The notes beneath the pieces were generated by a model. It made no database searches and was not told the DNA's origin. It saw only the letters and a list, made by a program, of their open reading frames with translations. Shown piece by piece: positions 5,996 to 58,015 of a stretch of 64,000 nt of DNA (its first letter is position 1; the number at the start of each line of letters is the position of its first letter). Origin of the DNA: Candidatus Latescibacterota bacterium (GTDB lineage: Bacteria > Latescibacterota > UBA2968 > GCA-2709665); the NCBI GenBank assembly GCA_965208835.1, contig OZ242358.1, forward strand, positions 4,704,001 to 4,768,000, in the 5' to 3' direction. The position numbers and the translations under genes are program-made.

Positions 5996-8953
5996 TCACT
6001 CACGCGTCCGTCTGTTTTCTTGGACATCCTTTGAACCTGCCAGCCGTTTCTCCTGGACACTTCGGGTATATTTGCAGTCGGGCCAGTTCGAACAACCGAT
6101 GAACCGTCCATATTTTCCCCTCTTCTCCCGCAGCCATCCAAAGCACGTCGGACATCCTTCAACACCCTTCCGGCAGTCCAGGCAACGGTAGTTCCCATCA
6201 ACTTTAGCCTGTAATCCAGTCCGGCAATGGGGACACCCGGGCTGTCGAAACTCGCAATACGGCCAGAGCGAACAACCGTAGAATATCCCCCTGCCCCGAG
6301 CGCTGCCTCTCCGCTGCAGCCGTCCATGGATGCATCCGGGGCACGGAACATCCCGTTTTGGTTGCTCTCCATGAACCTCTACGTCATAGCCGTCCTTCAT
6401 CAACTCCTCGACGAAAGCCGAAGGCGTTCCCAAATCGGCAAGGAGATAGACGCCGCGCCTGGCGCGGGTGACCGCGACATAGAACAGGCGGCGCTCCTCG
6501 GCGTTTGGAAATGCTTCCGGCGCAGCCAGAACGAGGTCCAGCAGCGGGTCGTCGACGATCCCCGTGGGGAAGCCGTACTTTCCGGAGCACAGGTCAAGTA
6601 CCACCACGTAATCGGCCTCAAGGCCCTTGGATCCGTGGACAGTCATGAACGTGAGTTCAAGATTCAAATGCGCTCGCGCCAACGTGCCTATATTCCGGGG
6701 CCTGTTGTGCCGGTATCGGCCCAGCAGCAGAACCGTAGCGGGCTCGTCGTCACCGGCTGTATGTGCAGCAATTGCGTTCAACGCCTCCGCCAGCGGATCC
6801 GGGCACGTTTCCCGGGCGACCATTATATGCACGCACGGCTCGTCCGCATTGAAGATGGATGAAACACGCTTGCGAATCTGAGCGGGGTTGCTGAGTACGA
6901 ATCGGGTAGCGAGATCGGAGATACGATCCGTACATCTGAACGTCGTCTCCATGTCGACGCGTTCGCTCTCGCCAAAGTGTGCCGCGAACTCTCGCATAAT
7001 GGCGATGTCCGAACCTGCAAAGCGGAAGATGGCCTGCCAGTCGTCGCCGACGGCAAACAGCTGTGCGGTATTCGATGTGTCCAGCAACGCCTTCAGCAGT
7101 CGCGCTCTTCCGGCCGAAATGTCCTGAAACTCATCGACGAGTATGTAGCCATACCGGTTGCGGTAGCGCCCACTTTGCACGTGTTCTGTCGCGATGGTGA
7201 TCATGTCGTGGAAGTCAATTTGCCGCTTCCTTGCAAGCGATTCCTGGTAACGCTCGTATACAGGAATGAAAACGGTCAGGAAGGCCTCTGCCCGAGGACG
7301 GAATGGCGCCTCGGCGGCGCGACGGGCCACGTCGTTTGCCGAAAGTTGCGCACCCTTGTAATGATGGAGGAACGTCGCAACCAGACGCGTGAAAGGGTCG
7401 ATTCGACCCTGCTGTTCAAGTACGGAAAAGGTCTCCTCGGATGGGATCGGAGACAGCGTTACCCCATGGGCGGTTAATTTTTCCTCCAGGTTCAGGGTCA
7501 GTCTGCCCGCTTTCTTTTCGTGACTGTAGGTCTCCACGAGTACGGTGCCATGTTCAGCGTGCAGGCGTCTCTTCCAGTCCAATGACCTGAGGTATTTTCG
7601 GCGGTCGATAAAGGGGGGTGTATTGTTCGATTCCGAAAGTGCAATGTGTTCAATGTATATCCCCGCGTCGGGAAGGTAGAAGTCGGGCTGGTATTGCCTC
7701 TTCTCCGGCGTGGCGGTTTCGTGTTCGTAATCGCGTTCGTACTCATAGGCCACGCCGTTGAGGTAAAGGAAGTTGGCGATCTCGCATTCTTCGAAACTCT
7801 TGAGTTTCTCGCCTTTCAGGGACCGGACGCCGTTGTCCCGGAGATAGGCCCAATACGCTCCCTGCGTCTGAAATTCGAACTCGCTTCGGTACGGAGCGAA
7901 GTGTTCCGCGAACCATTTGAGCGTGACCTCCGAGAACCTGGGATCGGCGACGAGGTCGCGAACGATGCCCCTCAGCAGATCGTACAGCGCTTGCTCATCT
8001 ACCGCGGCCCTGGCCACGGCCGGGCGCCTGCGTTCCACTTCGCCGATAATCGACATTCCCAGGCTGTGGAACGTTCGGACCGTGAGCTCGGCTCCCACCC
8101 GATCCCCGAGGCGTTTCCGGATCCTTTCCACCATTTCTTCCTGGGCATCTTTGGCAAATGCAAGCAGAAGCAGTTCCGATGGACGCCGGTAACCCTTCTG
8201 AATGAGCCAGCCCGCCTTGGCAACGATGACCGACGTCTTGCCGCTCCCGGCCGCTGCAACGATCAGGTTGCGGTCTTCATCAACGACAACCGCTCTACGC
8301 TGCTCGTCCGTGAGCGGCCTCGCCTCGATCCCGTCGAAGAATTCCCTGGATCGCAACAGCTCGTTGGCCACAAACGTGTCGCAGGCTCTCGTCCGCCAAC
8401 GTTCGGAGTCATCCGAGAAGTCCTGAATCGCCTTCAGCATTCGGATTTCCGCGAGGTCGGACAGCTGTTCGGGCCACTGGGAGGGGAACCGTGCGGCCAC
8501 GTCATTGGCGTCGTATTCGATTGGGGAAAAGACAGTGCGCGCCACATACCTCGGCGGATCGGTAAACCGGGCCAGGCGGTCGTAAACGGATTCTATCGTT
8601 TCAATGTGTGAATCCAGGGCGTCTTGCCACCAATCGACTCTTGCGCGCAAGAGTGCGTCGCCGAACAATTGCGCGGACGGTTTAGACAGTCCGGACACCG
8701 TTACATCGCCGGAGGCCAGACGTACTCGCAAGCGGCCCCAGAACCACCCAAGCCCCATCTCCGCGGTCTCGATTGCCCGAAAGGGGATAACAATGGACCG
8801 GGACCGGCGTTCCAGGATCAGCCTTTCACCCGTCAGCCTGACCGCTCCGGCCTGTCCCGGACGCAGGAACCGGAACACGAACGAGGCCAGGCCGGATCGT
8901 CCGGCGCACATGGATCTCCCGGGGTCCGAATGACGACTGTGCGTACGGGCCAT
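5996..8953 (-). CDS. UvrD/SF1 helicase (DNA helicase IV-like) with inserted nuclease-like domain and C-terminal topoisomerase-type Zn ribbons
   Basis: AAAGSGKT, LVDEFQD, VGDDWQAIFRF, TVHGSKGLE, EERRLFYVAVTRA; C-terminal CPGC...FYGCSLWPYC and CPTC...FIGCSNWPDC. Confidence 0.88.
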   Translation of the reverse strand: MARTHSRHSDPGRSMCAGRSGLASFVFRFLRPGQAGAVRLTGERLILERRSRSIVIPFRAIETAEMGLGWFWGRLRVRLASGDVTVSGLSKPSAQLFGDALLRARVDWWQDALDSHIETIESVYDRLARFTDPPRYVARTVFSPIEYDANDVAARFPSQWPEQLSDLAEIRMLKAIQDFSDDSERWRTRACDTFVANELLRSREFFDGIEARPLTDEQRRAVVVDEDRNLIVAAAGSGKTSVIVAKAGWLIQKGYRRPSELLLLAFAKDAQEEMVERIRKRLGDRVGAELTVRTFHSLGMSIIGEVERRRPAVARAAVDEQALYDLLRGIVRDLVADPRFSEVTLKWFAEHFAPYRSEFEFQTQGAYWAYLRDNGVRSLKGEKLKSFEECEIANFLYLNGVAYEYERDYEHETATPEKRQYQPDFYLPDAGIYIEHIALSESNNTPPFIDRRKYLRSLDWKRRLHAEHGTVLVETYSHEKKAGRLTLNLEEKLTAHGVTLSPIPSEETFSVLEQQGRIDPFTRLVATFLHHYKGAQLSANDVARRAAEAPFRPRAEAFLTVFIPVYERYQESLARKRQIDFHDMITIATEHVQSGRYRNRYGYILVDEFQDISAGRARLLKALLDTSNTAQLFAVGDDWQAIFRFAGSDIAIMREFAAHFGESERVDMETTFRCTDRISDLATRFVLSNPAQIRKRVSSIFNADEPCVHIMVARETCPDPLAEALNAIAAHTAGDDEPATVLLLGRYRHNRPRNIGTLARAHLNLELTFMTVHGSKGLEADYVVVLDLCSGKYGFPTGIVDDPLLDLVLAAPEAFPNAEERRLFYVAVTRARRGVYLLADLGTPSAFVEELMKDGYDVEVHGEQPKRDVPCPGCIHGRLQRRGSARGRGIFYGCSLWPYCEFRQPGCPHCRTGLQAKVDGNYRCLDCRKGVEGCPTCFGWLREKRGKYGRFIGCSNWPDCKYTRSVQEKRLAGSKDVQENRRTRE

Positions 8954-11565: not shown

Positions 11566-13257
11566 TTATTCCACGTATCCGGAGATGAGATCCACAGTGG
11601 CCTCATCTCCTTTTTTCTGCGCCCAGGCGAGGGGTGTGGCCCATTCGGCTCCGGACAGTATGGGGTCGGCCCCACTTTCCAGGTACAATCGGGCCAGTTC
11701 GTGCTTGCCCCATCTGACCGCCCAACCGAGCGGTGTGGACTGAAGAAGCTCGTCGATGACGTTCAGGTCGGCGCCGTGGTCAAGCAGGATGGTTGCAAAT
11801 GTTATGCGTTCGGGTTCGGTCATAATCGGTTCGCCCCAGACGATCCCGCAGGCCGCCAGATGGTGAGCGAGCCGATACCCGAAACGACCCACAAGATTGG
11901 GGCTGACGCCGTGGGCCAGAATCATCCGGAAGATCTCGGGATAGACCGTTCGGTCGAAGTCGCGGAACTTGCGGTGGGGGTTGGTCCGCCACAGGCGCAG
12001 CGGCTGCTCCAGCAGGCCGAACCACCGCCCGTCGTCCGGTTTCCAGTCGAGTTTCCTCAGGCACATCCCCACGATATCCGGGTCGCCGCCGCATCCGGCC
12101 GCCCAGAGCAGCTTTTCCGCTATCGACGGGTCGTTGTGGAGGGCGACCGCGCCGGCGGCGGTTTCAGCCTCGAGTCCAATGGTAATGTGATCCAGAACGC
12201 CTCCGTATCGGAACAACAGTCCCTTCATCCGATCGTCGCGGTTGTTGTACGCCGCACCCACGGGATTGGCGCTGGCATAGATGCTGGCGTTGGGGTCGGC
12301 GCCCCGCTCGAGCAGGAGTTCGGCGATTTCATGTCGGGAGTTACCTGACGCATCGGACAGGGGCCCACCCCACGAATACGGCTTGGATTCGTAGTGGTGC
12401 AGCTGATGCCGGTCGTCCGGGTGCAGACCGAGGTCCAACAGCAGGCGCACCATGTCGATATTGTCATTCTGGACGGCGATCGTCAGAAGCCCGTTGCGCT
12501 CACTGTCGTTCGCCTGAAAGCGTTCGGGATGCGTCTTCGCGAACGTACGGACAAACTCGAAATCCCCCAGGGCAACGGCGGATTCGATGGATTGCTCGCA
12601 TCCCGCCTGGAGCAGAATTCCCGTGCAGATCAGACACCCTTCGTTGAGCGGCCTGTTGCGGCCGCGAATGTTGTGTACGGCCCCGTCCAGGGGCGACTGT
12701 CCCTCCGGCGTGAGATGGGTGATATCGGCGCCACGTTTAAGCAACTCGCGAACGAGCCTGTAACGGCCGTGCGATGCCGCGGCGTGAATGACGCTGCCGC
12801 CATTGCGATGACAGGCATCCAGCAGTTCGGGCTGCCCATCCAGGACGTCGAGCGCGGCCTCGTCCCTCCCCTCACTGACGGCCTCGAAGAGTGCGTCGTT
12901 CTCGTCGGTGATGGTGATATTCTTGCAGGCAGCCAGCTTGCGTCTTTCGTCTTCTTCCCTGATCACGTGGACGATGTCGTCCAGGCCGCGTTCCCGGGCC
13001 ATGGTATACGCGCCGGTGGCATCGCGGTGGGGATAGATGCCCGAGTTGTGGTCCGCGCCCGCTTCCATAAGAACGCGGACCGCATCGATGTGCCGGTTCA
13101 TCACCGCGTAATGAATCGCGCGGTGTTCGTTGTTCTCCGCCATGTGTACGTTTACCAGGTCGGGCTGTTCGCCAAGTATCTGTTCAATCCTCGAGACGTC
13201 GCCGCTGGCTGCCGCCTCGCAGAGATCGGCGACCCTGAACGATCCGTTGTTGGCCAT
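11566..13257 (-). CDS. Ankyrin repeat protein
   Basis: Repeated ankyrin motifs (AIHYAV...LMEAGAD, IHAAA...LLKRGAD, LLERGADPN, TPLGWAV...GADP); RBS GGAGG. Confidence 0.88.
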   Translation of the reverse strand: MANNGSFRVADLCEAAASGDVSRIEQILGEQPDLVNVHMAENNEHRAIHYAVMNRHIDAVRVLMEAGADHNSGIYPHRDATGAYTMARERGLDDIVHVIREEDERRKLAACKNITITDENDALFEAVSEGRDEAALDVLDGQPELLDACHRNGGSVIHAAASHGRYRLVRELLKRGADITHLTPEGQSPLDGAVHNIRGRNRPLNEGCLICTGILLQAGCEQSIESAVALGDFEFVRTFAKTHPERFQANDSERNGLLTIAVQNDNIDMVRLLLDLGLHPDDRHQLHHYESKPYSWGGPLSDASGNSRHEIAELLLERGADPNASIYASANPVGAAYNNRDDRMKGLLFRYGGVLDHITIGLEAETAAGAVALHNDPSIAEKLLWAAGCGGDPDIVGMCLRKLDWKPDDGRWFGLLEQPLRLWRTNPHRKFRDFDRTVYPEIFRMILAHGVSPNLVGRFGYRLAHHLAACGIVWGEPIMTEPERITFATILLDHGADLNVIDELLQSTPLGWAVRWGKHELARLYLESGADPILSGAEWATPLAWAQKKGDEATVDLISGYVE

Positions 13258-24436: not shown

Positions 24437-26842
24437 ATGTTTCATCAAATCCGGTCATGGGGTCCGACTGTCGTCCTGTTGATCTGTCTGCTTGCGGCAT
24501 CCGGCGCAGCGTCCGCCGGCGAGTTCAGACTCACGATTCTGCACAACAACGACGGCGAGTCCCAGTTGATAAACGCCGGCGACGGCCTGGAAGACTTCGG
24601 CGGCGTGGATCGATTCAAAACCGTGGCAGATCAGCTCAAAGCCGAAGCGCGGATGGACGGCGGCGTACTCATGGTTTCATCGGGCGACAACTTCCTCGCA
24701 GGCCCCGAATTCAACGTCAGCCTCCGGCTCCCCGAATCCGCCCCCTTCTACGACGCCCTTGCGATGGACCTGATCGGGTACGATGCCGTATGCATCGGCA
24801 ACCACGACTTCGACTTCGGACCGGACATTCTGGCGAGGTTCATCTCCGGCTACAGTCTCACCCGCCCGCCATATCTCAGCGCCAACCTGGATTTCGGGGA
24901 TGAACCGGAGCTGGCAGGCCTCGTCGCTTCCGGCCAGATTGCCGGGAGCGCGGTCGTCAGTGTCGACGGCGAACATATCGGCATCGTGGGCGCCACCACA
25001 CCGGACCTGGCGTTCATATCCAGCCCGCGAAACGTGAGAGTGGACGGCCGGCTGCGGGAAGCCATCCAGGCCGAGGTGAACGGTCTGGCGCGACGCGGCG
25101 TGAGAATCATCGTCCTGATCAGCCACCTCCAGTCCATTGACAACGATCTGGAGCTCGTCCGGGAATTGCGGGGCGTGGACGTGGTGATTGCGGGCGGCGG
25201 CGGCGACATCCTGGCAAACCCCGGCACGCGCCTGATTCCCGGCGACGAAGTCGAGATTTCAGGACCTTACCCCATACTCGAACAGGACGCGGACGGAAAC
25301 GACGTCCACGTTGTCACCACTGCGGGGAACTATCGGTACGTCGGCCGGTTCGTAGCCAGTTTCAATGCTGCCGGCGTGATTACGTCAGTCGACCGGGACG
25401 CCAGCGGCCCGGTGCGTGTGGCGGGCGGCGGCCAACCGGATGCCGTGGTCCCGGACGCCGATGTCCGGAACCGGGTCGTCCGCCCGGTCAGCGATGCCCT
25501 TGCCTCCCTGGCTTCAAATCAGGTGGGAACGTCGGAAGTTGTACTCGACGGCGTAAGAAGCAGAATTCGGACCAGGGAGACCAACGAAGGCAACCTGGTG
25601 GCCGACGCCCTCCGATGGCAGAGCGCACAGCTTGCGTCGGCGTTCGGCGTCCCCGTTCCACAAGTGGGCATCGTGAACGGAGGGGGAATTCGCAACGCCA
25701 GCGAAATTCCCGTCGGGGCGATATCTGAACTCACGACCTTCGACATGCTGCCGTTCCCCAACTTCGTCACCGTCGTGCCCGCCGTTCCCGCAGCGCAATT
25801 CAGGGAAATCATGGAGAACGCGGTCTCGAAGGCAGAACGCACCTCTGGCCGGTTCGCCCAGATTTCGGGCTTCACGATGGTCTGGAATCCCGATGGCTCC
25901 GCTCAGGAACTGGATGAGAGTGGGAGCGTGACAAGAGGCGGCAGCCGTATCGTGGCGATCACTCTGGACAACGGCGCCGGCATCGTCAGAAACGGAAACG
26001 TCGTATCCGGCGCGCCGGACATTCACGTGGCAACAGTTGACTTCCTCGCCAGGGGCGGTGACCAGTATCCCTATCGGGGCGCCCGCTTCACGCGTCTGGA
26101 CGTAACCTACCAGCAGGCGCTGGCCAACTTCATCAGGGAAGGCCTCGGCGGCCGCATCACGGCGGCGGCATATCCGGAAGGTGGGCAGGGCCGGATTACC
26201 ACCGGGCAGCCGAAACATGCGGACGAGTCGAACGTCGCGAACCGCTCTGTCGCGCACGTGTTCCTGACGCGGGACGGCGGGCCAATACCGAACGTACGGG
26301 TTGAATTCTCACGTTCCGTCTCCGGCCGCGCGAGGGACTACCGGTGGAAAGGCACAACCGACGCCGATGGCGGCGCCACAATAGAAATCCGATCTGAAGG
26401 TCGCCAAAGCGTCTCGGGCTACTACGCGGTTCGTGCGGTGGATATCGCGGGCAATACGATCTCCAGATGGGAGAGCGTCCCGATCAACAGCGGGCGGGAA
26501 ATCACGCTCCTCCTGCCGGTGGGTGGCGTCGCCCGCGTCAAGGCGGAACAACTGCTCGCTCCGGAGACCCTGGCGCTCTACCCGAACACACCCAACCCGT
26601 TCAATCCTTCCACCCTGATTACCTACCGGCTCCCGGAGCCCGGGCAGGTCAACCTCACGATTTACAACCTGCTGGGCCAGCAGGTCCGGGTTCTGGTACA
26701 GGATCATCAGAGCCAGGGCCGGTACGAGGTCCTGTGGGACGGAAGGGACGGGTTCGGAAGCTTCGTCTCCAGTGGCGTCTATTTCTATCGACTCGGGCAT
26801 CCAGGCGGCGTACTAATCAACCGCATGCTCCTGGTCAAATAA
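24437..26842 (+). CDS. Secreted 5'-nucleotidase/metallophosphoesterase with C-terminal FlgD-Ig/T9SS-like domain
   Basis: Signal peptide; LHNND, SGDNF, GNHDFD, ISHL, NGGGIR, LPFPN, GRFAQISG, FLARGGDQY; YPNTPNPFNPST...IYNLLGQ...SSGVYFYRL tail. Confidence 0.88.
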   Translation: MFHQIRSWGPTVVLLICLLAASGAASAGEFRLTILHNNDGESQLINAGDGLEDFGGVDRFKTVADQLKAEARMDGGVLMVSSGDNFLAGPEFNVSLRLPESAPFYDALAMDLIGYDAVCIGNHDFDFGPDILARFISGYSLTRPPYLSANLDFGDEPELAGLVASGQIAGSAVVSVDGEHIGIVGATTPDLAFISSPRNVRVDGRLREAIQAEVNGLARRGVRIIVLISHLQSIDNDLELVRELRGVDVVIAGGGGDILANPGTRLIPGDEVEISGPYPILEQDADGNDVHVVTTAGNYRYVGRFVASFNAAGVITSVDRDASGPVRVAGGGQPDAVVPDADVRNRVVRPVSDALASLASNQVGTSEVVLDGVRSRIRTRETNEGNLVADALRWQSAQLASAFGVPVPQVGIVNGGGIRNASEIPVGAISELTTFDMLPFPNFVTVVPAVPAAQFREIMENAVSKAERTSGRFAQISGFTMVWNPDGSAQELDESGSVTRGGSRIVAITLDNGAGIVRNGNVVSGAPDIHVATVDFLARGGDQYPYRGARFTRLDVTYQQALANFIREGLGGRITAAAYPEGGQGRITTGQPKHADESNVANRSVAHVFLTRDGGPIPNVRVEFSRSVSGRARDYRWKGTTDADGGATIEIRSEGRQSVSGYYAVRAVDIAGNTISRWESVPINSGREITLLLPVGGVARVKAEQLLAPETLALYPNTPNPFNPSTLITYRLPEPGQVNLTIYNLLGQQVRVLVQDHQSQGRYEVLWDGRDGFGSFVSSGVYFYRLGHPGGVLINRMLLVK

Positions 26843-26901
26843 CGATCGGCACTGACCTGACGCGCAGTCGAAAATCCGGCTGCTTTCCGCCCTCCGTTCT
26901 C

Positions 26902-26930
26902 TTGACGGAGCCGTCCGTTTCCGGTATATT
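26902..26930 (+). promoter_or_regulatory. Sigma70-like promoter upstream of RAPP leader ORF
   Basis: TTGACG-17bp-TATATT; predicted start site coincides with ATG at 26937. Confidence 0.6.
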
Positions 26931-26936
26931 TTCGGG

Positions 26937-27260
26937 ATGGATCCCGGTAAGTCCTGTACTCTTCCGGAGACGGTAGGGATGTTTTTTTCCTACAGACGGA
27001 GTCGCCCTGTTGTCGTTTTCGCGCTGGCGATATTCACGGGCTACCTGGTGTGTTTTCTACTTGCCGCCTTCCCCGGACACGTTCACGATCACGATCAGCA
27101 ATGTACTGTCTGCGCCTGGTTCAACAACCTGAGCATTAATCTGCCTGCAGTACTGGTCTTGCAACTATGCTTTCTGTATTTCAGGCAAGGGTTTTTCTCG
27201 TTTCGTTCCCCTCTCTCTTCTCTCCTTCTGCCGGACGGACGCGCACCTCCCGTGTCCTGA
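26937..27260 (+). CDS. DUF2946/CruR/CutF-like leader peptide (TM segment, His-rich CxxC, C-terminal RAPP); alternative start 26979
   Basis: Hydrophobic segment, HVHDHDQQCTVC, terminal GRAPPVS. Confidence 0.72.
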   Translation: MDPGKSCTLPETVGMFFSYRRSRPVVVFALAIFTGYLVCFLLAAFPGHVHDHDQQCTVCAWFNNLSINLPAVLVLQLCFLYFRQGFFSFRSPLSSLLLPDGRAPPVS

Positions 27261-27439
27261 TCCATCCTGGTGTCCTGTCCCGGAAATTCCTCACAATTCG
27301 ACAGCCGATTCATCCCGTATCGCTGCGTTCCCCTCGCTCGACGACCTTACGCAGGTCGCCTGCGCTCCGGCGCTGGTTTCTGAGCCTGTAGAAGGATGCG
27401 AGCCGGACGACTCAGCTGTCGAATTCAGGCAACTTAATT

Positions 27440-27496
27440 CCTGGACAGAACACTGGCGTGTCTTCCTGACACGTCTTCCGTATTTCCAGGTTTTTT
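27440..27496 (+). terminator. Possible attenuator/terminator in lipoprotein leader
   Basis: CCTGGA...GCGTGTC-ttcct-GACACGT...TCCAGG followed by T6. Confidence 0.35.
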
Positions 27497-27762
27497 CAAA
27501 CAGGTCGTTCCAGGTCGGCCCTGGCTCGATTCCGCATGCAGAAATGTGGATCGGTTCTGCTCGCGGATAGACTCTCGGGACCGCGTATTGCGCCGTCCCG
27601 CCCCTCACCGGGTTAGGCTACATCCGCAATGGCGGAAAATCAGCCCGGCGATTTGGCACTTATCGCCAGCATGCCGGCAAATCCGCAGTTCCTTTACCGC
27701 GCCGGCGGATGCTCACGCGAGAATCGGGGCGAAGTGAGATTCCGGTACACAGGAGAACATTA

Positions 27763-29016
27763 ATGTTCAGCATGCTGAAGATGAAAACAACCAATCGATT
27801 GATTGCAACGGCGGCGGTTCTTGCCGTGTTCGCGTCCGGTTGTGGAAAAGAAGACCCCATTACGCAACAGGAAGAACATTATGAAGCTGAAGGCCTCGTC
27901 CTCCTCGACTCCGGCCAGCGGTTCTTCCGATATTTCCAGGGCAGGATCGACTCGGGCGATGGTCGTGCGGAAGCTTTGGACGTCGCCCATGGCGAAGTCA
28001 CCAGCAAGTGGAGCATTCGCTTCCTTGACAAAGACGGAAACGAAATGGCGCCCCCCACTGGCGAGGGTTTCAGTTTCACGTGGGAAATCGCAGATAAGGA
28101 TATTGTGGAAGTCGTCCAGGACGCGGCCGAGGTGGGCAAATTCGTCTTCGCCCTGCGCGGCCTCGAAGATGGCGAAACCACCATCAAGCTTCAGATTGCG
28201 CACGAAGGTCACATCGACTTCACCACGGTGCCGCTGCCGGTACACGTGGGAGGAGAGTTCGAGGCGGAAGGGCTCGTCATTATCGAATCCGGCGTTCGAT
28301 TCTTCCGTTACTTCCAGGGCGAAATCGACTCTGGCGAAGGTCGGGTTTCGGAACTCATGGCGCCGATCGGCATGACGCCCCACTGGCGCATCATGTTTCT
28401 GGACGAACACGGCGATGAAATAGATCCGCCGGACTATCCCGAATTCACGTTCGGCTGGACCATCGCCGACCCCGACGTCGTCGAAGTCGTCCAGGACGAG
28501 GGTGACGAAGGTTTATTCGAGTTTCACCTGCGCGGCTTGAAGGGGGGCGAAACCACCATCGTGTTGAAGGTCGAACACGATGGACACACGGATTTCAGCA
28601 CCCAACCCATTCCCGTACACGTGGAGTCACAGGAGGGCCAGCACGGCGAACCCGCGGGCTTGCGGCTTAAGGAAGAAGACAGCGGTGAAGTGCTGGTAGA
28701 GGCGCCCGTGGCGGGAGAAGGCACAGCCGGCGATGCGCTGTCGGTCGCCGTTGGTGACACAACCGACCACATCGCGACGTTCTTCTTTGACGAAGACGAC
28801 GTGGAGTTCCAGCCGGAAGCGCCCGATCACACGCTGGGCATCGCGGTGGCCGACACCTCGTTGCTTGCCATCGATCCGCCCGCAGCGCCCGAATACTGGG
28901 CGTTCAGACTCATCGGCAAAAAGGCCGGCACGACCACCATAACGCTTTCCATTCTCCACGACGGCGAGGAGGAAGAAGAATTCGCGCCCATTTCGGTGGC
29001 GATCACCGCACAATAG
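27763..29016 (+). CDS. Acidic lipoprotein with three ~120-aa Ig-like repeats, putative metal-binding
   Basis: RBS AGGAG; lipobox FASGC; repeats EAEGLV..SG.RFFRYFQG...GETTI.L...H(E/D)GH.DF. Confidence 0.8.
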   Translation: MFSMLKMKTTNRLIATAAVLAVFASGCGKEDPITQQEEHYEAEGLVLLDSGQRFFRYFQGRIDSGDGRAEALDVAHGEVTSKWSIRFLDKDGNEMAPPTGEGFSFTWEIADKDIVEVVQDAAEVGKFVFALRGLEDGETTIKLQIAHEGHIDFTTVPLPVHVGGEFEAEGLVIIESGVRFFRYFQGEIDSGEGRVSELMAPIGMTPHWRIMFLDEHGDEIDPPDYPEFTFGWTIADPDVVEVVQDEGDEGLFEFHLRGLKGGETTIVLKVEHDGHTDFSTQPIPVHVESQEGQHGEPAGLRLKEEDSGEVLVEAPVAGEGTAGDALSVAVGDTTDHIATFFFDEDDVEFQPEAPDHTLGIAVADTSLLAIDPPAAPEYWAFRLIGKKAGTTTITLSILHDGEEEEEFAPISVAITAQ

Positions 29017-29106
29017 CAGGAAGCACGGCGGGAGGGCGAGGCTGCGCTTGCTCGCCTCTCATAGCCGGCTTCACCCGTCGGCGCTGCGCGCCCCTCGTGC
29101 CTCTTA

Positions 29107-29161
29107 ACCGCCACTTTTTCGCTCGCTCTCGGGAACTCACCGGTAATTTTAAAACAGCTTC
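29107..29161. repeat. Partial copy (right end) of the MITE at 33816-33977
   Basis: 54/55 identical to 33923-33977, including the terminal inverted repeat. Confidence 0.85.
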
Positions 29162-29908
29162 TTAGTTTTTTCCGAGCATCGCCCGCCGCATCACCCGTTC
29201 TACAACGCGTGGAAACAGGGTACCCAGAACAGCCGCCGTACGGTTTCCGAAACCCGGGACAAGCAGACGCCTTCTCTTCCCGATGCCCCGATGGATGGCA
29301 TCTGCCAACGTTTCCGGCGGCATGCGTTTTTCCTCCCGCGAGTTATCAGGGCTGTACCGACGGGCATGGGCGGTGCGTGTCGGTCCCGGAAAGACCGTCA
29401 TGACGTGTATGTCACGCGGAGCGAGCGCAACCGAGAGACTTCGCGCGTACGACGCCAGCCCGCTCTTGGTTGCCGCGTACGCCGCGGCGCCAGGATAGCA
29501 TACGTAGTGCGAGAGTGACGAAATGAAAACCAGGGACCCGCCGGAGACAATGCGGTCGGCCTCCAGCAACCTCGCCGTCAACAACAGGGGCGCCTGGAAG
29601 TTTACCGCGACCACCTTCTCCTGATCCTTCAATCCCACGCGGGGAAACCGCCCCACGGCGTTGATACCCGCGTTGTGTACCAGGACGTCGATCGGATCCA
29701 TCGAGCCCAGTTCATCGTGAACACGCGCAATGCCAGCATCCGTACTCAAATCGGCCAACACAAACCTGGCCCCCATTTCCGGCTGGAGATCGGCGGCGCG
29801 TTTCGCGTCCACGTCCACACCGGTCACGGAATATTCCGCGCGAACGAGCCTGCGTGCGAGCGCCTCGCCGATTCCATTCGCCGCCCCGGTTATGACCGCG
29901 TGTTTCAT
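29162..29908 (-). CDS. SDR family oxidoreductase
   Basis: ITGAANGIG, HNAG, YAATK; ATGA overlap with upstream SDR. Confidence 0.88.
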   Translation of the reverse strand: MKHAVITGAANGIGEALARRLVRAEYSVTGVDVDAKRAADLQPEMGARFVLADLSTDAGIARVHDELGSMDPIDVLVHNAGINAVGRFPRVGLKDQEKVVAVNFQAPLLLTARLLEADRIVSGGSLVFISSLSHYVCYPGAAAYAATKSGLASYARSLSVALAPRDIHVMTVFPGPTRTAHARRYSPDNSREEKRMPPETLADAIHRGIGKRRRLLVPGFGNRTAAVLGTLFPRVVERVMRRAMLGKN

Positions 29909-50697: not shown

Positions 50698-53600
50698 TCA
50701 CGCCGGAACCCGACCCGCCTGACCGTGACACTTCTTGTATTTTTTCCCGCTTCCGCACGGACACGGGTCGTTTCTGCCCACCTTCTGCACCCGAATCGGA
50801 CGTTGTCGGGGCGGCCCCCCTTCCGAAGTGGCGGCGACGGTATCCGACATCGGCGGCGCCTCAACGCCGTGGGCGAATCCCATGCCGGTGGCATCCTGGT
50901 GCGTGAGCGAGACCCGCTGAGGCTGCCGGCCTCCGGGGCTTGTCAGTTCCTCTTCGACCGGAATGCGAAAAAGGGTCTTCAATGTCTCACGGTTGATTTC
51001 GTCAAGGAGATCGACGAACATTTGAAACCCTTCACGCTTGTATTCGATCAGCGGGTCCTTTTGTCCGTATCCCCGCAGGCCGATGCCTTCCTTGAGGTCG
51101 TCCATCTCCCTGAGGTGGTCCTTCCACTTCTCATCGGTTACCCCCAGATAGACCATTCGCTCGATGTCCCGCATCCTTCCCGCGCCGATCAGGCTCTCCC
51201 GGCGCCTGTACGCAGACCTGATTCCATCGAACAATTCATGCCTGAATCCATCCTCCTTCAGTTCGGGCAGCGCCTCGGGAGGCACTTCCGGGACCTGAAG
51301 GAAAATCTGGCGCAGGTCGCGATAGAGCCCGTCCAGATTCCAGTCCTCCTGGGTGCCTTCATCGGGAAGGTGGCTCTCGAACGAAGCGTTCACCACCTCC
51401 TCCATCTCTTCCTCGATCTGCTCGTAGATATTGTGCTGTTCCAGCGCGTGGCGGCGCCGATCGTAGACGACCTCCCGCTGCTGGTTCATCACGTCGTCGT
51501 ATTCCAGGAGATGTTTCCGCACCTCGAAATTCCGGGCTTCCACGCGCTTCTGCGCCCGCTCGATGGATCGGGTCACCATCCGGTGCTCGATCACCTCGCC
51601 GTCTTCGGCGCCCAGCCGGTCCATGATCCGGGCAATCCGCTCGGAGCCGAAGAGCCGCATGAGGTCGTCTTCCAGTGAGATGAAAAACCTTGAATTCCCA
51701 GGGTCGCCCTGCCGGCCGGCCCGTCCACGAAGCTGCCGGTCTATCCGTCTTGCCTCGTGCCGCTCGGTTCCGATGATATGCAGTCCGCAAGGAACGTCAT
51801 CCCGGCAACCGTATTCTTCCAGGTGCGGGCACACCGGATGACCGCCGTTGGTTCCGGGTATCAGCGCGCATTGATGGTCTTGCGGCGCCTTGACCACGCC
51901 ATCGCCCAGTTTGATATCCGTACCTCGACCCGCCATATTGGTGGCAATGGTCACGGCGCCCGGCTGTCCGGCTCTGGCAACGATCTGGGCTTCCTGCTGG
52001 TTGTGACGTGCGTTGAGCACCGAGTGTTTGATCCCCTTGCGCTTTAACATGCGGGATAACAACTCCGACATCTCGACGCTGATGGTACCCACGAGAACAG
52101 GCAGGCTTCTGTCGTTCAGCCGCTCGATCTCGTCCACGATGGCGTTATACTTCTCCCGTTTGGTTCTGAAGATCAGGTCTTCCGAATCGATCCGCCGCAC
52201 AGGTTCGTTCGTAGGCATCACCACGACGTCCAGCTTGTAGATCTGAAACAGTTCCGCCGCCTCGGTTTCGGCAGTTCCCGTCATCCCCGCCAGTTTGTGG
52301 TACAATCGAAAGTAATTCTGCAGTGTAATTGTGGCAATCGTCTGGGTGTCCCGTTCCACCTTGACGCGCTCTTTCGCTTCCAGAGCCTGGTGCAAACCGT
52401 CCGCAAATCGCCGACCCGGCTGGGGACGACCCGTGAATTCGTCGACGATAATCACCTGGCCGCCGTCCACGATATACCTTACATCCTTCTCATAAAGCGT
52501 ATAGGCGACCAGAAGCTGTTGTACGCTGTGAATCGCCTCGCTCTTCCGGGCGTAGTCCTGATAGGCGTCATCCTGGGCTCTGGCCTTCTCGTCCGGCGCA
52601 AGCGCATCGTCCGCCTCGATTTCGTGCAGGACTTCATCCAGGTCCTGAAGCACGAAATCGTCCGGCTTCCGGCTGATCTCAACCCGTCCCTTGTCGGTCA
52701 GGTCGATTACGTGGCTCTTCTCGTCCACGCTGAAGTAGAGGTCTTCGTCAATCTCGCCCATTCGTTTGTCACGCAGATAGTCGGCCTCAACCCGTTGGAT
52801 CAGACGTTTGGTCCCCTCTTCCTGGAGTAATTTCATGAACCGCCGGTTCTTGGGCATCCCCCGTTGAACCTGAAGCAGCCGGATACCCGCCTCGTATTCG
52901 TCCTCTTCAAGGATTTCCTCCGCTTCGTTCAGCGTTCCGGTTACCACCCGCGTCTGCGCACGGACCAACCGCTCCACCAGCGGCCGCATCTCATCGTACC
53001 GTTGATTGTCGGCCTCCGCCACCGCTCCTGAAATAATCAGCGGCGTCCTCGCTTCGTCGATCAGTATGCTGTCGGCCTCGTCGATTATCGCGAAATAATG
53101 TTCGCGCTGCATCAGGTCGTCCGGGCGTACCGCCATGTTGTCGTAAAGATAGTCGAACCCGAACTGGTCCTTCGTGCCGTAGATGACATCCGCCCTGTAG
53201 GCTTCCTGATGATCGCACTCCCGCAGACGGTACCCGCCCTCGCCATCCTCCTCCATGAGATACGCGTCCGCCTCCATGGACCGATCCTGGATGATACCCA
53301 CGCTCATCCCGAGATAGAGATAGACGGGCCCCAGCCACATGGCGTCTCGTTTTGCGAGATAGGAGTTCACCGTAACGAGATGTACGCCCCGTCCCGTCAA
53401 TCCGTTCAGATAAAGCGGCATTCCCGCGACGAGCGTCTTGCCCTCGCCGGTGGCCATCTCGGCTATTTTTCCGTGGTGAAGCACGATACCGCCGAGCAGC
53501 TGTACGTCGTAAGGCACCATATCCCAGACAATGGACTCACCGGCGCGCTCCCACTGTTTCCCGTCCGTTTTGAACCGGCGGCAAACCTCTTTGTAGACCG

Positions 53601-53928
53601 CGTATGCCTCCGGCAAGATTTCCTCCAGAGCTTCCGCCTCGAGTTCCCTGACTTCACCCTCCAGTTCCGAGATTTCGTCCAGCAGCGAAGAGCGATCCAT
53701 TTCCTCCTCGCTCTTCAACTCCTCCCGCATCCCATCGAGCTGTACCGTGTATTCTGCCGTCGCGTCCCGCAGCCTCTGCTTGAATTCGGCCGTCTTGCCG
53801 CGCAGGCTCGCTTCGGAAATGGGAGCGTAAGACTCGCAATGCCCGTTGATTCTCTCGACCGTCGGCCAGAGTTTCTTCAGATCCCGATCGTACTTGGTCC
53901 CGAAGACTTTTTTGATCACGCCCATCAT
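50698..53928 (-). CDS. secA: Preprotein translocase subunit SecA
   Basis: [71 protein letters not shown]. Confidence 0.98.
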
Positions 53929-54380
53929 AAGCTGTTATCCACCGATAATCGACAATCCACCGGTTTTTCGATGACTCCCTTCTGCCTGACCAGCGCATCC
54001 AGAATTCCGTTGATGAACGTAGGCGCCTTCTCCACGCTGTACCGCTTTGCGAGTTCAATCGCTTCGTTCATCGATACCTTGACCGGAATATTGTCGAATG
54101 CGAGCATTTCCGTAAGCGCCATCCACAGCAGGATCCGGTCGATCCTCGAGATGCGATCCAGTGCCCAGTTTCTGGATATCCCCTCTACCAGACCGTTCAG
54201 CTCTTCTTTCCGCGTCCAGGTCTCCCGGCCAAGCGCATGGGCGAATTCGGCGGCGTCCTCCGTCAACCCGGCGCGAAGCGCGACGGCGTCGAGCGTCCGT
54301 TGTACGGGGTCTCCCGAACTCTCGCTCCAGTACAGCGCCTGCAGCGTAACTTCACGGGCTTTTCGTCGAGAACCCGTCAT
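53925..54380 (-). CDS. nusB: Transcription antitermination factor NusB
   Basis: [34 protein letters not shown]; ATGA overlap with ribH. Confidence 0.95.
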
Positions 54381-54856
54381 GCGTCTTCTTCGTTCAAGGA
54401 TGCCAACAGATTTACCATCTCGACAGCGGCAAGGGCGACCTCCCATCCCTTGTTGCCGGCCTTGGTTCCCGCCCTTTCGATCGCCTGTTCGATCGTATCG
54501 GTTGTCAGAACGCCAAACAGACATGGCACACCCGACTCCAGCCCGACCGATGCGATCCCCCTGGAGACCTCGTTGGCCACATAATCGAAGTGGGGAGTAC
54601 TCCCTCGAATCACGGCGCCCAGGCAGATCACCGCGTCGTAACGTCCGCTACGCGCCATTTTCCCGGCCACCAGTGGAATCTCGAACGAACCCGGAACCCG
54701 GACCACATCGACATCATCCGGTTCGCCTCCATGTCGTCTCAGGCAATCCTCGGCGCCTTCCAGCAACTGCTTGCTGACCAGGCTGTTGAATCGACTCACC
54801 ACAATGCCGAATCGTTTGCCATCCGCGCGCAATCCACCTTCAATCGTTCTGGCCAT
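54377..54856 (-). CDS. ribH: 6,7-dimethyl-8-ribityllumazine synthase
   Basis: [38 protein letters not shown]. Confidence 0.96.
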
Positions 54857-56915: not shown

Positions 56916-58015
56916 TTATGTAGCCCGCGGCAGAACTGCATCGCCCTTCAGCCGTGCCGTGTAGAACAAGTCGCGGCCGGTCCAATCCACATCGACCTCA
57001 TTCAGAAGAATCGCATCGGCTATTCTTGTAATTCCCAGGTCGCCCACCGACTCAATCCCTTTTCCCAGAATCGCCGGGGCGATAAACACCGCCAGGCGGT
57101 CGACCAACCGGTCGCGCATCGCCGAAGCAGCCACCGTGCCCCCACCTTCGATCAACACGTGGGTTATGCCTTCGGCGCCCGCCCGGGAAAGTACGTCCCG
57201 AAGCATGGGCCTACCATTCTTTGGGGTACAGACCCATACGCGCGCGCCGCGCTCCTCCATCGCTTCGATTTTTTTTTTGAAACCCCGTGCGCGGCGGCGA
57301 AAATCAGCGCCTCCCCGTCGAATATCCTTGCGTCTCTTGAAATCTCAAGGCGACTGTCCAGCACGATTTTTGCCGGATCGGGACCGTCCGCGTGCCGAAC
57401 CGACAGCGCCGGATCGTCCGCGTCGACAGTCCCCCGACCGACCAGGACCGCGGACGCTTCAGCACGCAGCCCGTGGGCCTTTACCCTGGATGCGCCAGAC
57501 GAAATCCATTTCGATTCGCCCGATGCCGTCGCGATCCGACCGTCGAGGGTCTGCGCCAGCTTCAGGGTAACGAATGGAAAGCCCGTTGTGCGGTGTTTTA
57601 CGTAAGCCTCGTTCAGCCGACGCGCCTCTTCCTCTAGTACGCCAACCTCCACCCGTACACCGGCCTCCCGCAACCGGGCGATGCCTCTGCCGGAAACCCG
57701 TCGGTCCGGGTCCACCATGCCGCATACGACCCTCGCAACCCCTCTTTTGATCAACAAATCGACACACGGCGGCGTACGGCCGGTATGGGCGCAAGGTTCG
57801 AGGGTCACGTACAGCGTAACATTGGGGGTTCCGTCGGCCAACCCTTCAAGCGCGTATACCTCCGCGTGCGGTTTTCCGGATTCAGGGTAATACCCCTTTC
57901 CAACAACCTGCCCGTCCCGAACCGTCACCGCACCCACCAGAGCGCCGTCCCGTACCCGACCGCGTCCATTTTCGGCCAGCGACAACGCCAGCCTCATATA
58001 GTCCACATCCGTCAT
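56916..58015 (-). pseudogene. ribD: RibD deaminase/reductase, frameshifted at an A10 tract (57269-57278); may be a sequencing artefact
   Basis: 5' ORF has HAE, TLEPC...TPPC, KLAQTLDG; 3' ORF in another frame has LIEGGG, FIAP; junction is the homopolymer. Confidence 0.85.

Follow-up and report, generated by a model that had tools for sequence, protein, structure and literature searches.

In a 64,000-nucleotide (nt) stretch of a Candidatus Latescibacterota genome (contig OZ242358.1, positions 4,704,001 to 4,768,000 of the forward strand; hereafter the window), a small open reading frame (ORF) of 93 residues at 26979..27260 on the plus strand stands ahead of a long leader and a 417-residue lipoprotein gene. 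Because the ORF, its C-terminal Arg-Ala-Pro-Pro (RAPP) motif and the distance from this motif to an upstream Cys-x-x-Cys (CxxC) pair are conserved, because the peptide is remotely homologous to the family DUF2946 (PF11162), and because the ORF stands at the head of the leader with a C-rich, G-poor (C>G) bubble over its 3' end, it is interpreted as a metal-responsive arrest peptide of the type of CruR from Bordetella pertussis, a relative of DUF2946 that would control a metal-uptake module; the probability assigned to this interpretation is roughly 60%. The layout is of a known kind, that of CruR and of CutF from Rhodobacter capsulatus, and its own features are a spacing of 42 residues between CxxC and RAPP, a His-rich module of variable copy number, a lipoprotein target and a very long conserved leader.

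The small ORF and its conservation

The elements that a first-pass annotation of this DNA had named (a promoter, a small ORF, a membrane-targeting segment, the motif HVHDHDQQCTVC and a terminal RAPP) are each found where they had been predicted. The promoter is a sigma-70-like site at 26902..26930 (+) with the form TTGACG-17 nt-TATATT, 10 of 12 matches to consensus and a predicted transcription start near 26937. No other site of this kind occurs in 26700-29300, an interval in which shuffled sequences yield 0.9 on average, so that a single match is not significant; the -35/-10 pair of the promoter is kept in 17 of the 21 aligned copies of the region, the four exceptions being internal units of tandem pairs or arrays. 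The longest reading of the ORF, 26937..27260 (+), has 107 residues and ends with the stop codon 27258-27260. Its ATG at 26937 lies 7 nt past the -10 hexamer and had been proposed as a possible leaderless start, a suggestion that is abandoned here because an ATG at that position is unique to the window, being found in none of the other 20 aligned copies, and because the homologs all begin at ATG 26979 (M15 of the longer reading), where a Shine-Dalgarno sequence precedes the start and the codon is ATG in 21 copies and GTG in three. This Shine-Dalgarno sequence, GGAG at 26966..26969 (+), is 9 nt ahead of ATG 26979 and is kept in 20 of the 21 aligned copies, the remaining one (locus L019) having GGGA.

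From its N-terminus the 93-residue peptide contains a hydrophobic anchor, the His/Cys motif, a second hydrophobic stretch and the ending LLLPDGRAPPVS, directly followed by the stop codon. The anchor consists of 22 residues (residues 10-31; 27006..27071, +), is preceded by RRSR, and gives mean Kyte-Doolittle values of 1.7-2.65 in a 19-residue window (peak 2.65). The candidate metal-binding motif HVHDHDQQCTVC (27078..27113, +) includes the CxxC pair CTVC at 27102-27113, and residues H36, H38, C42 and C45 of the 93-residue form are invariant in an alignment of 27 sequences (alignment A3). An HDHDxQC-like module upstream of CxxC is present in one, two or three copies, corresponding to peptides of 91-93, 97-100 and 103-104 residues. 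The second hydrophobic stretch, NLSINLPAVLVLQLCFLYF (27126..27182, +), lies between CxxC and RAPP and is weaker (mean hydropathy 1.65); at a stall most of it would be inside the ribosomal exit tunnel. The RAPP codons, CGC GCA CCT CCC (27240..27251, +), are followed by Val, Ser and the stop.

Searches of 5.8 billion proteins returned 27 homologs of the small ORF with E-values of 1e-27 to 3e-43, all 91-104 residues long except one frameshifted entry; the two that are named both come from Gemmatimonadota metagenome-assembled genomes (MAGs). A genome scan found 19 related loci, to which several genomes contributed two each, and of these 11 are titled Candidatus Latescibacterota, 6 Gemmatimonadota and 2 uncultured bacterium. 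With the window they hold 25 copies of the ORF, comprising the 21 ATG and three GTG copies and a second copy in locus L010 (L010b). RAPP is kept in 25/25 copies (the 24 tabulated and L010b), the 25th reading RAPPVSHVSS without its stop. The Arg, Ala, Pro and Pro of this motif are invariant and yet are encoded by 3, 4, 3 and 4 different codons, respectively, and among 90 aligned codons of 24 copies the diversity at codon positions 1, 2 and 3 is 0.153, 0.139 and 0.267, the third position thus being the most variable. Because homologs and 19 related loci exist, because RAPP is retained despite synonymous codon changes, and because third positions vary most, the ORF is, by its sequence record, more than a chance feature, and selection acts on its peptide. 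The geometry of the peptide is likewise fixed: the last Cys of CxxC is separated from the Arg of RAPP by 42 residues in 51 of 53 sequences, among them relatives of only ~30% identity, and the tail after RAPP is two residues long in 49 of the 53, a redundant set that comprises 21 locus ORFs, 26 database homologs and 6 distant relatives.

That the entire peptide is conserved, and not the C-terminus alone, would also be expected of a stable small membrane protein that serves as metal-binding partner or chaperone of the lipoprotein or receptor encoded downstream, with RAPP acting only as a pause or structural motif. Two hydrophobic stretches around a His/Cys loop would suit a membrane hairpin, and HDHDxQC modules differ in number between peptides, as is seen in loops that store or capture metal. 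The second stretch is marginal for this purpose, however, and RAPP is invariant both in its position two residues from the stop and in its fixed distance of 42 residues from CxxC; moreover, RAPP is reported to be among the most avoided tetrapeptides in bacteria and to cluster near the C-terminus of small upstream-ORF (uORF) products (PMC12992588), and the products of CruR and CutF are reported as short-lived or undetected. A stable protein is accordingly regarded as rather improbable.

Relation to DUF2946 and to characterized arrest peptides

DUF2946 is the sole Pfam family that matches the window peptide, with 14.1 bits and an E-value of 0.081, residues 47-105 aligning with positions 55-117 of the 117-position profile, where CxxC and RAPP lie. 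Matches of family members always fall in one register (profile 45/55-117), with scores of 16.3 bits for the relative P0074, 14.8 for P0012, 7.5 for P0027 and 25.5 for P0076, the last alone exceeding the gathering cutoff of 23.7. When a profile built from A3 was compared with 1.84 billion representative proteins, eight proteins were matched at E <= 1e-3: the two clusters of the family itself, one spurious repeat protein, and five peptides of 92-107 residues that have the same layout and end in RAPP or Arg-Ser-Pro-Pro (RSPP). P0076, one of these five, was matched at E 7.2e-6, and direct alignment of A3 with P0076 by hhalign gave a probability of 96.5% (E 7.2e-10, 74 columns) and placed CxxC on CxxC and RAPP on RAPP. 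The geometry of P0076 is canonical for DUF2946 (spacing 45, tail of three residues), and three gaps in the alignment explain the difference between spacings of 42 and 45. A search with P0076 for canonical DUF2946 sequences returned P0076 alone. In the ESM Atlas small-protein clusters without names were found, mostly from Acidobacteriota, one of which carries DUF2946 on 17% of its members and is taken as a lead only. The window family shares with DUF2946 the CxxC pair, RAPP near the C-terminus, an N-terminal anchor as judged by hydropathy, and a position at the head of a long intergenic region. We conclude that the small-ORF family is, on these sequence comparisons, a remote relative of DUF2946 that is linked to it through P0076 as intermediate and that falls short of both the Pfam threshold and the published spacing. 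The likeness to DUF2946 suggested by the first-pass annotation is thus borne out through P0076, and not by the direct score of the window peptide.

CruR (Bp2923), the DUF2946 member of B. pertussis, is reported to stall at RAPP when copper is scarce and so to shield a Rho utilization (rut) site, the stall being released when copper is sensed through CxxC. The rut site lies in a C>G bubble that starts in the second half of the ORF, Rho terminates in an intergenic region of 162 nt, the spacing between CxxC and RAPP is constrained to 45 ± 1-2 residues, and more than 95% of DUF2946 members have an N-terminal signal peptide or N-in/C-out anchor (PMC9426467); arrest at RAPP by CruR in vitro was reported later (PMC12992588). 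The family is described as mostly proteobacterial, with few members in Planctomycetes, Firmicutes and Deinococcus (Roy et al.), and DUF2946 genes are reported beside zinc/cadmium efflux genes in Caulobacter (PMC4176598). The window peptide resembles CruR in several respects: its short ORF comes first, its N-terminal segment is of the export or anchor type, CxxC is invariant, and RAPP stands near the stop at a fixed distance from CxxC. The ORF is likewise followed by a long intergenic region with a C>G bubble from the second half of the ORF and, in paralogous copies, by a gene for a TonB-dependent receptor; to these likenesses is added the remote homology through P0076. It differs from CruR in length (93 versus 145 residues), spacing (42 versus 45) and tail (two versus three residues), in its additional His/Asp-rich module of variable copy number and its second hydrophobic stretch between CxxC and RAPP, in its leader of 287-631 nt versus 162 nt, and in a score below the Pfam cutoff. 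The target in the window is a lipoprotein with immunoglobulin (Ig)-like repeats, whereas the receptors of the paralogous copies are nearer to ZnuD than to the copper receptors OprC and CrtA, and the hosts are MAGs labelled Gemmatimonadota or Latescibacterota.

Leader peptides with an arrest core near the C-terminus are not restricted to metal sensing. In SecM of Escherichia coli an Arg-Ala-x-Pro core lies near the C-terminus of a secreted leader, and the stall is relieved by pulling force on the nascent chain; the core is RAGP, the stall unmasks the nearby ribosome-binding site of secA, and what is sensed is SecA activity. The window peptide shares the Arg-Ala-x-Pro core near its C-terminus and differs from SecM in the motif itself, in the short distance to the secA site that SecM has, and in its proposed signal, which would be a metal rather than SecA activity. 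The ApdP and ApdA peptides and other uORFs ending in RAPP or RGPP are similarly reported to place the motif at the C-terminus of a small secreted or membrane peptide upstream of a gene (PMC12992588), and the combination of an N-terminal anchor with a C-terminal RAPP is the architecture of ApdP and ApdA; the ORF might therefore be a substrate that monitors Sec or YidC, its stall being released by membrane insertion and reporting on secretion capacity. However, ApdP and ApdA precede genes of the Sec pathway and sense translocation, whereas the genes downstream of the present family encode a lipoprotein or a TonB-dependent receptor and never sec or yidC, secA of the window (50701-53928, minus strand) has no RAPP uORF, and an invariant His/Cys motif at fixed spacing points to a ligand and accompanies targets of metal-uptake type. 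A secretion monitor is thus considered very improbable. Neither Gemmatimonadota nor Latescibacterota is named in the main text and three searchable supplements of PMC9426467, or in the main text and ten supplement files of PMC12992588 (one further file lying outside the search), and a full-text literature search for 'Gemmatimonad' with 'arrest peptide' returned no papers.

The leader RNA and the proposed mode of control

The rut-like C>G bubble (27146..27386, +) was computed over 78 nt at a time, as used to locate the rut site of cruR. It is a C/T-rich, G-poor region that extends over the 3' half of the ORF and the first ~125 nt past the stop, with a C/G ratio of up to 2.38 (99th percentile of the window). 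A corresponding bubble is present in 21 of 21 copies, from about -110 to between +70 and +130 nt around the stop, with peak C/G of 2.2-3.5, at least the 98th percentile of each locus.

In the mechanism proposed for the window, transcription would begin at the 26902-26930 promoter and be followed by translation of the leader peptide, whose N-terminal anchor would engage the membrane. The ribosome would then stall while its P site holds Arg-Ala-Pro on the CCT codon and its A site the second Pro codon, CCC, positions predicted from the toeprinting of CruR (PMC12992588), and at this point the His/Asp/Cys motif, 42 residues before RAPP, would have just left the exit tunnel. By sitting on the 3' end of the ORF, rich in C and poor in G, the stalled ribosome would hinder Rho and let RNA polymerase read through the leader into the lipoprotein gene or, in paralogous copies, into the gene for a ZnuD-like TonB-dependent receptor. 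When the cognate metal is plentiful it would bind the nascent His/Cys motif and release the stall; the ribosome would terminate, Rho would load on the exposed C-rich RNA, and transcription would end in the leader, with the uptake genes OFF. Inferred parts of this scheme are the stall, metal binding, the kind of metal (Zn, Cu, Ni or Co), whether the metal lowers or raises expression, and the involvement of Rho.

A different mode of control is represented by CutF, the other DUF2946 member that has been studied, in which copper induces a stall at Pro-Pro-Pro (PPP) that opens a stem-loop covering the ribosome-binding site of cutO (10.1101/2025.02.05.636593). Like CutF, the window peptide would be directed to the membrane while still nascent, carries a Cys motif and, near its C-terminus, prolines at which the ribosome would stall, and would regulate the following gene in response to metal; it is conceivable that here too, as in CutF or SecM, metal would induce or prolong the stall and the ribosome would melt a helix that hides the Shine-Dalgarno sequence of the lipoprotein gene, turning the gene ON. 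In 19 copies the GGAG of the downstream gene is in fact predicted to be largely base-paired (P(unpaired) 0.02-0.53), and RNAalifold pairs a UCCU within the Ser-Leu-Leu-Leu-Pro codons with the AGGA of this Shine-Dalgarno sequence. That pairing is invariant, however, and so provides no evidence of covariation, and it lies outside the footprint of the stalled ribosome. The stall site and the start codon are 287-631 nt apart. Partition-function folding of 19 whole leaders, which as an equilibrium calculation is a weak test of Shine-Dalgarno masking, gave a predicted partner that differs from copy to copy, and keeping the ribosomal footprint unpaired raised the accessibility of the Shine-Dalgarno sequence in 2/19 leaders and lowered it in 2/19; neither these folds nor the consensus fold contain a consistent masking helix. 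The consensus is itself unconvincing, with RNAalifold energies of -24.8 kcal/mol for 13 sequences and -11.1 kcal/mol for 18 (covariation term -0.37) and hardly any covariation in either. CutF is further reported to have CxxxC in place of CxxC and a PPP that is sensitive to elongation factor P, and to induce a detoxifying oxidase, whereas the targets here look like uptake proteins, and receptors of uptake type would more naturally be repressed than induced by their metal. Control of translation in the manner of CutF is thus held to be unlikely, and the CruR-type model is favored over it because of the C>G bubble, the lack of a helix that masks the Shine-Dalgarno sequence, and target genes of uptake type.

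The leader of the window is 502 nt long (27261-27762), compared to 304-329 nt in eight orthologous loci; in the ninth ortholog, L017, it is 511 nt owing to a different insertion, and the overall range is 287-631 nt. The window leader contains an insertion of ~185 nt at 27267..27451 (+) that is missing from the orthologous loci. It lies between the stop codon and a conserved hairpin, resembles a miniature inverted-repeat transposable element, and has internal inverted repeats (arms 27295-27315 and 27405-27425) and the flanks CTGGTGTC and CTGGCGTGTC. Relatives of this element are found at L004 8551-8732, L007 5088-5267 and 7436-7703, L010 6355-6535 and L013 8236-8415, and on the opposite strand at unrelated sites at L015 1716-1881 (-) and L019 1216-1293 (-). 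In the window, as in several paralogous units, it stands right after the stop codon of the leader peptide, and by its sequence it looks like a small non-autonomous mobile element that prefers this spot. In L017 the different insertion, ~200 nt at ~6360-6560, splits the conserved hairpin element; the leader therefore tolerates or attracts insertions in the region of hairpin and stop. This element, CGTGTC-N5-GACACG (27457..27473, +), is the most conserved one past the stop, which it follows by ~10 nt where the insertion is missing. It may form a hairpin in the RNA or be a palindrome of the DNA: 94% of its cells are paired, with one compensatory pair, and its covariation score was reached by 31 of 500 shuffles.

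Beyond the hairpin the conserved leader continues from 27474 to 27762 (+) and includes the GGAG of the lipoprotein gene at 27752-27755. Its final ~85 nt before the start codon are near-invariant in leaders of lipoprotein and receptor genes alike, and a palindrome, GAACATTAATGTTC, overlaps the ATG. The 3' ~190 nt (27591-27780 in the window) recur without the small ORF at L017 8084-8270, L018 7902-8088 and L004 10314-10493, where these orphan copies stand between a lipoprotein gene and the next gene, which in L017 encodes a TonB-dependent receptor. All three features would be expected if the lipoprotein gene were controlled independently by the 3' part of the leader, as a promoter/operator or RNA element, with the small ORF forming a separate unit. 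Nevertheless, no second promoter was found between the ORF and the lipoprotein gene in a scan that covers the sigma-70 type only, the search of the leader against Rfam gave a single chance match (E 6.6) and thus no family, and each of the three orphan copies is preceded, within its cluster, by a gene of the same orientation. The small ORF moreover heads the cluster in 19 of 19 loci and in the window, and a terminator scan found no terminator-like site on the plus strand between it and the gene (27261-27762). Independent control of the lipoprotein gene is thus of low probability as a replacement for the CruR-type interpretation; the recurrence of the leader's 3' part without a small ORF indicates that this part serves some function by itself. 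An intrinsic terminator past the ORF was also considered and rejected, there being none on the plus strand; a T-run lies 17 nt from the hairpin and is lost in L011, L014 and L016.

Downstream genes, the candidate metal and significance

The order of genes is fixed: each copy of the ORF heads a long leader that is followed by a gene with a conserved 5' end. This gene encodes a lipoprotein after 19 of the 25 copies and a TonB-dependent receptor after five, and one copy (L001a) is followed by another copy. The remark of the first-pass annotation that the downstream gene is unusual in being neither a TonB receptor nor a multicopper oxidase holds for the window, where the gene encodes a lipoprotein, and loses some of its force once paralogous copies are seen to precede TonB-dependent receptors and some lipoprotein genes to precede one directly. 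In L015 and L019 a one-domain lipoprotein gene, and in L017 a three-domain one, is directly followed by a receptor gene, and the same is probably true of L018. The receptors after the copies have 798-855 residues with CarboxypepD_reg, Plug and TonB-dependent beta-barrel domains; four of the five are confirmed by Pfam, and the fifth, an 855-residue ORF in L010, is presumed to be one as well. Their best family is ZnuD (NCBIfam NF038289), with E-values of 1e-55 to 1e-58 and scores of 189-197 bits that remain below the curated cutoff of 950, and their best match in the PDB is ZnuD (4rdr, E 7.9e-34), compared to E 3.5e-11 for the copper receptor OprC. TonB-dependent receptors are reported among the genes enriched downstream of RAPP/RGPP uORFs across Gram-negative phyla in a 2025 EMBO J survey (PMC12992588). 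The N-termini of receptors that follow the leader (L001 from 7353, L013 from 8717) retain a decayed lipoprotein signal peptide in which the lipobox Cys has become Arg, which suggests that leader and signal-peptide region were duplicated as one block ahead of different genes.

The lipoprotein gene of the window (27763..29016, +) has its true start at ATG 27763 and encodes 417 residues with the lipobox Cys at position 27. The residues GK[DE]DP after the lipobox Cys (CGK[DE]DP) appear similar to the surface-export signal of Bacteroidota lipoproteins. The search for homologs returned 46, in which the number of Ig-like repeats varies from one to four (189 residues in L015 and L019, 298 in L016, 542 in P0028). 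A confident AlphaFold2 model of the window protein shows three Ig-like beta-sandwich domains (predicted local distance difference test 84.7, predicted template modelling score 0.44), and Foldseek matched this model to generic Ig-repeat proteins only, with template modelling scores <= 0.30. Pfam and NCBIfam matches are all below cutoffs, and the precomputed Pfam label of the homologs, 'PF26181', returned no papers in a literature search. Invariant or near-invariant residues include H39, H255, H272, H275 and D277, the last three making up an HxxHxD motif where a domain ends, and some homologs end in His-rich tails. Because of these conserved His/Asp residues and of the gene order next to receptors, the lipoprotein may capture metal beside the TonB-dependent receptor, as far as its sequence indicates.

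The metal itself leans toward zinc, or possibly nickel or cobalt, rather than copper, because of the His/Asp/Cys chemistry of the peptide, the ZnuD-like receptors and the HxxHxD of the lipoprotein. A more specific and distinctly tentative proposal, doubtful at present, is that the family forms a separate branch in the Fibrobacteres-Chlorobi-Bacteroidetes (FCB) group, sensing a non-copper metal, most likely zinc, through HDHDxQC modules of variable number and a CxxC kept exactly 42 residues from RAPP, and switching an outer-membrane uptake pair not described before, namely a surface Ig-repeat lipoprotein with HxxHxD sites and a ZnuD-like receptor.

Several observations weigh against the CruR-type interpretation. 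The window peptide scores below the gathering cutoff of DUF2946, no canonical proteobacterial DUF2946 protein is among the eight matches of the A3 profile, and the spacing of 42 and tail of two residues depart from the published rule of 45 (± 1-2) and from the three-residue tail of CruR. The leader is very long (502 nt in the window and 287-316 nt in most relatives). The ~185-nt insertion separates the stop from the conserved hairpin in the window and may alter coupling in this particular genome, and an independent control element, or a promoter of a type outside the scan, may reside in the leader's 3' ~190 nt. In part the C>G bubble mirrors coding for a peptide rich in Ser, Leu, Pro and Phe, and its 21 copies are related and so not independent. 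His-rich loops (at least 4 His per 15-residue window) are present in 0 of 8 receptors. No metalloregulator, Zur-type or other metal gene is found near the module in the window, and none in the flanks of the 8 of 19 loci surveyed with Pfam (35 of 79 candidate ORFs scanned); the receptors without His-rich loops and the lack of a nearby metal gene also count against the lean toward zinc. As for the earlier suggestion of a His/CxxC and RAPP leader resembling CruR and CutF, conservation, fixed spacing, remote homology, the position at the head of a conserved leader and the C>G bubble speak for it; its leaderless start is not supported, its downstream gene is less unusual than stated, and the peptide stays below the Pfam cutoff with a spacing of 42 rather than 45.

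Just upstream of the promoter, 24437-26842 (+) encodes an 801-residue 5'-nucleotidase/metallophosphatase with an Ig-like domain and a C-terminal sorting domain for type IX secretion, the latter fitting an organism of the FCB group; this gene is syntenic in 10 of the 19 loci. The remainder of the window is ordinary chromosome that includes uvrA, secA, groEL, lgt and riboflavin genes. The secA gene directly follows nusB (region 50701-54524, minus strand), with no RAPP-type upstream ORF ahead of it. Other ORFs of the window that end in RAPP-like motifs (1351-1494, 12281-12394 and 57086-57280) lie inside or opposite genes of annotated type and look spurious.

Experimental work on metal-sensing arrest peptides (CruR and CutF) has been confined to Proteobacteria and to copper, and the same design appears here in uncultured Gemmatimonadota-like bacteria, with targets that point to the uptake of a metal that may not be copper. 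Relatives of this kind escape the Pfam model, so that their number is underestimated in surveys relying on PF11162. An uncharacterized lipoprotein family is at the same time flagged as a likely partner of TonB-dependent receptors. The family lends itself to comparisons that ask how the distance between CxxC and RAPP is determined and how metal specificity arises, and if the tentative proposal of a separate zinc-sensing branch were true, it would represent the first zinc-responsive nascent-peptide sensor together with a new family of metal-capture lipoproteins.

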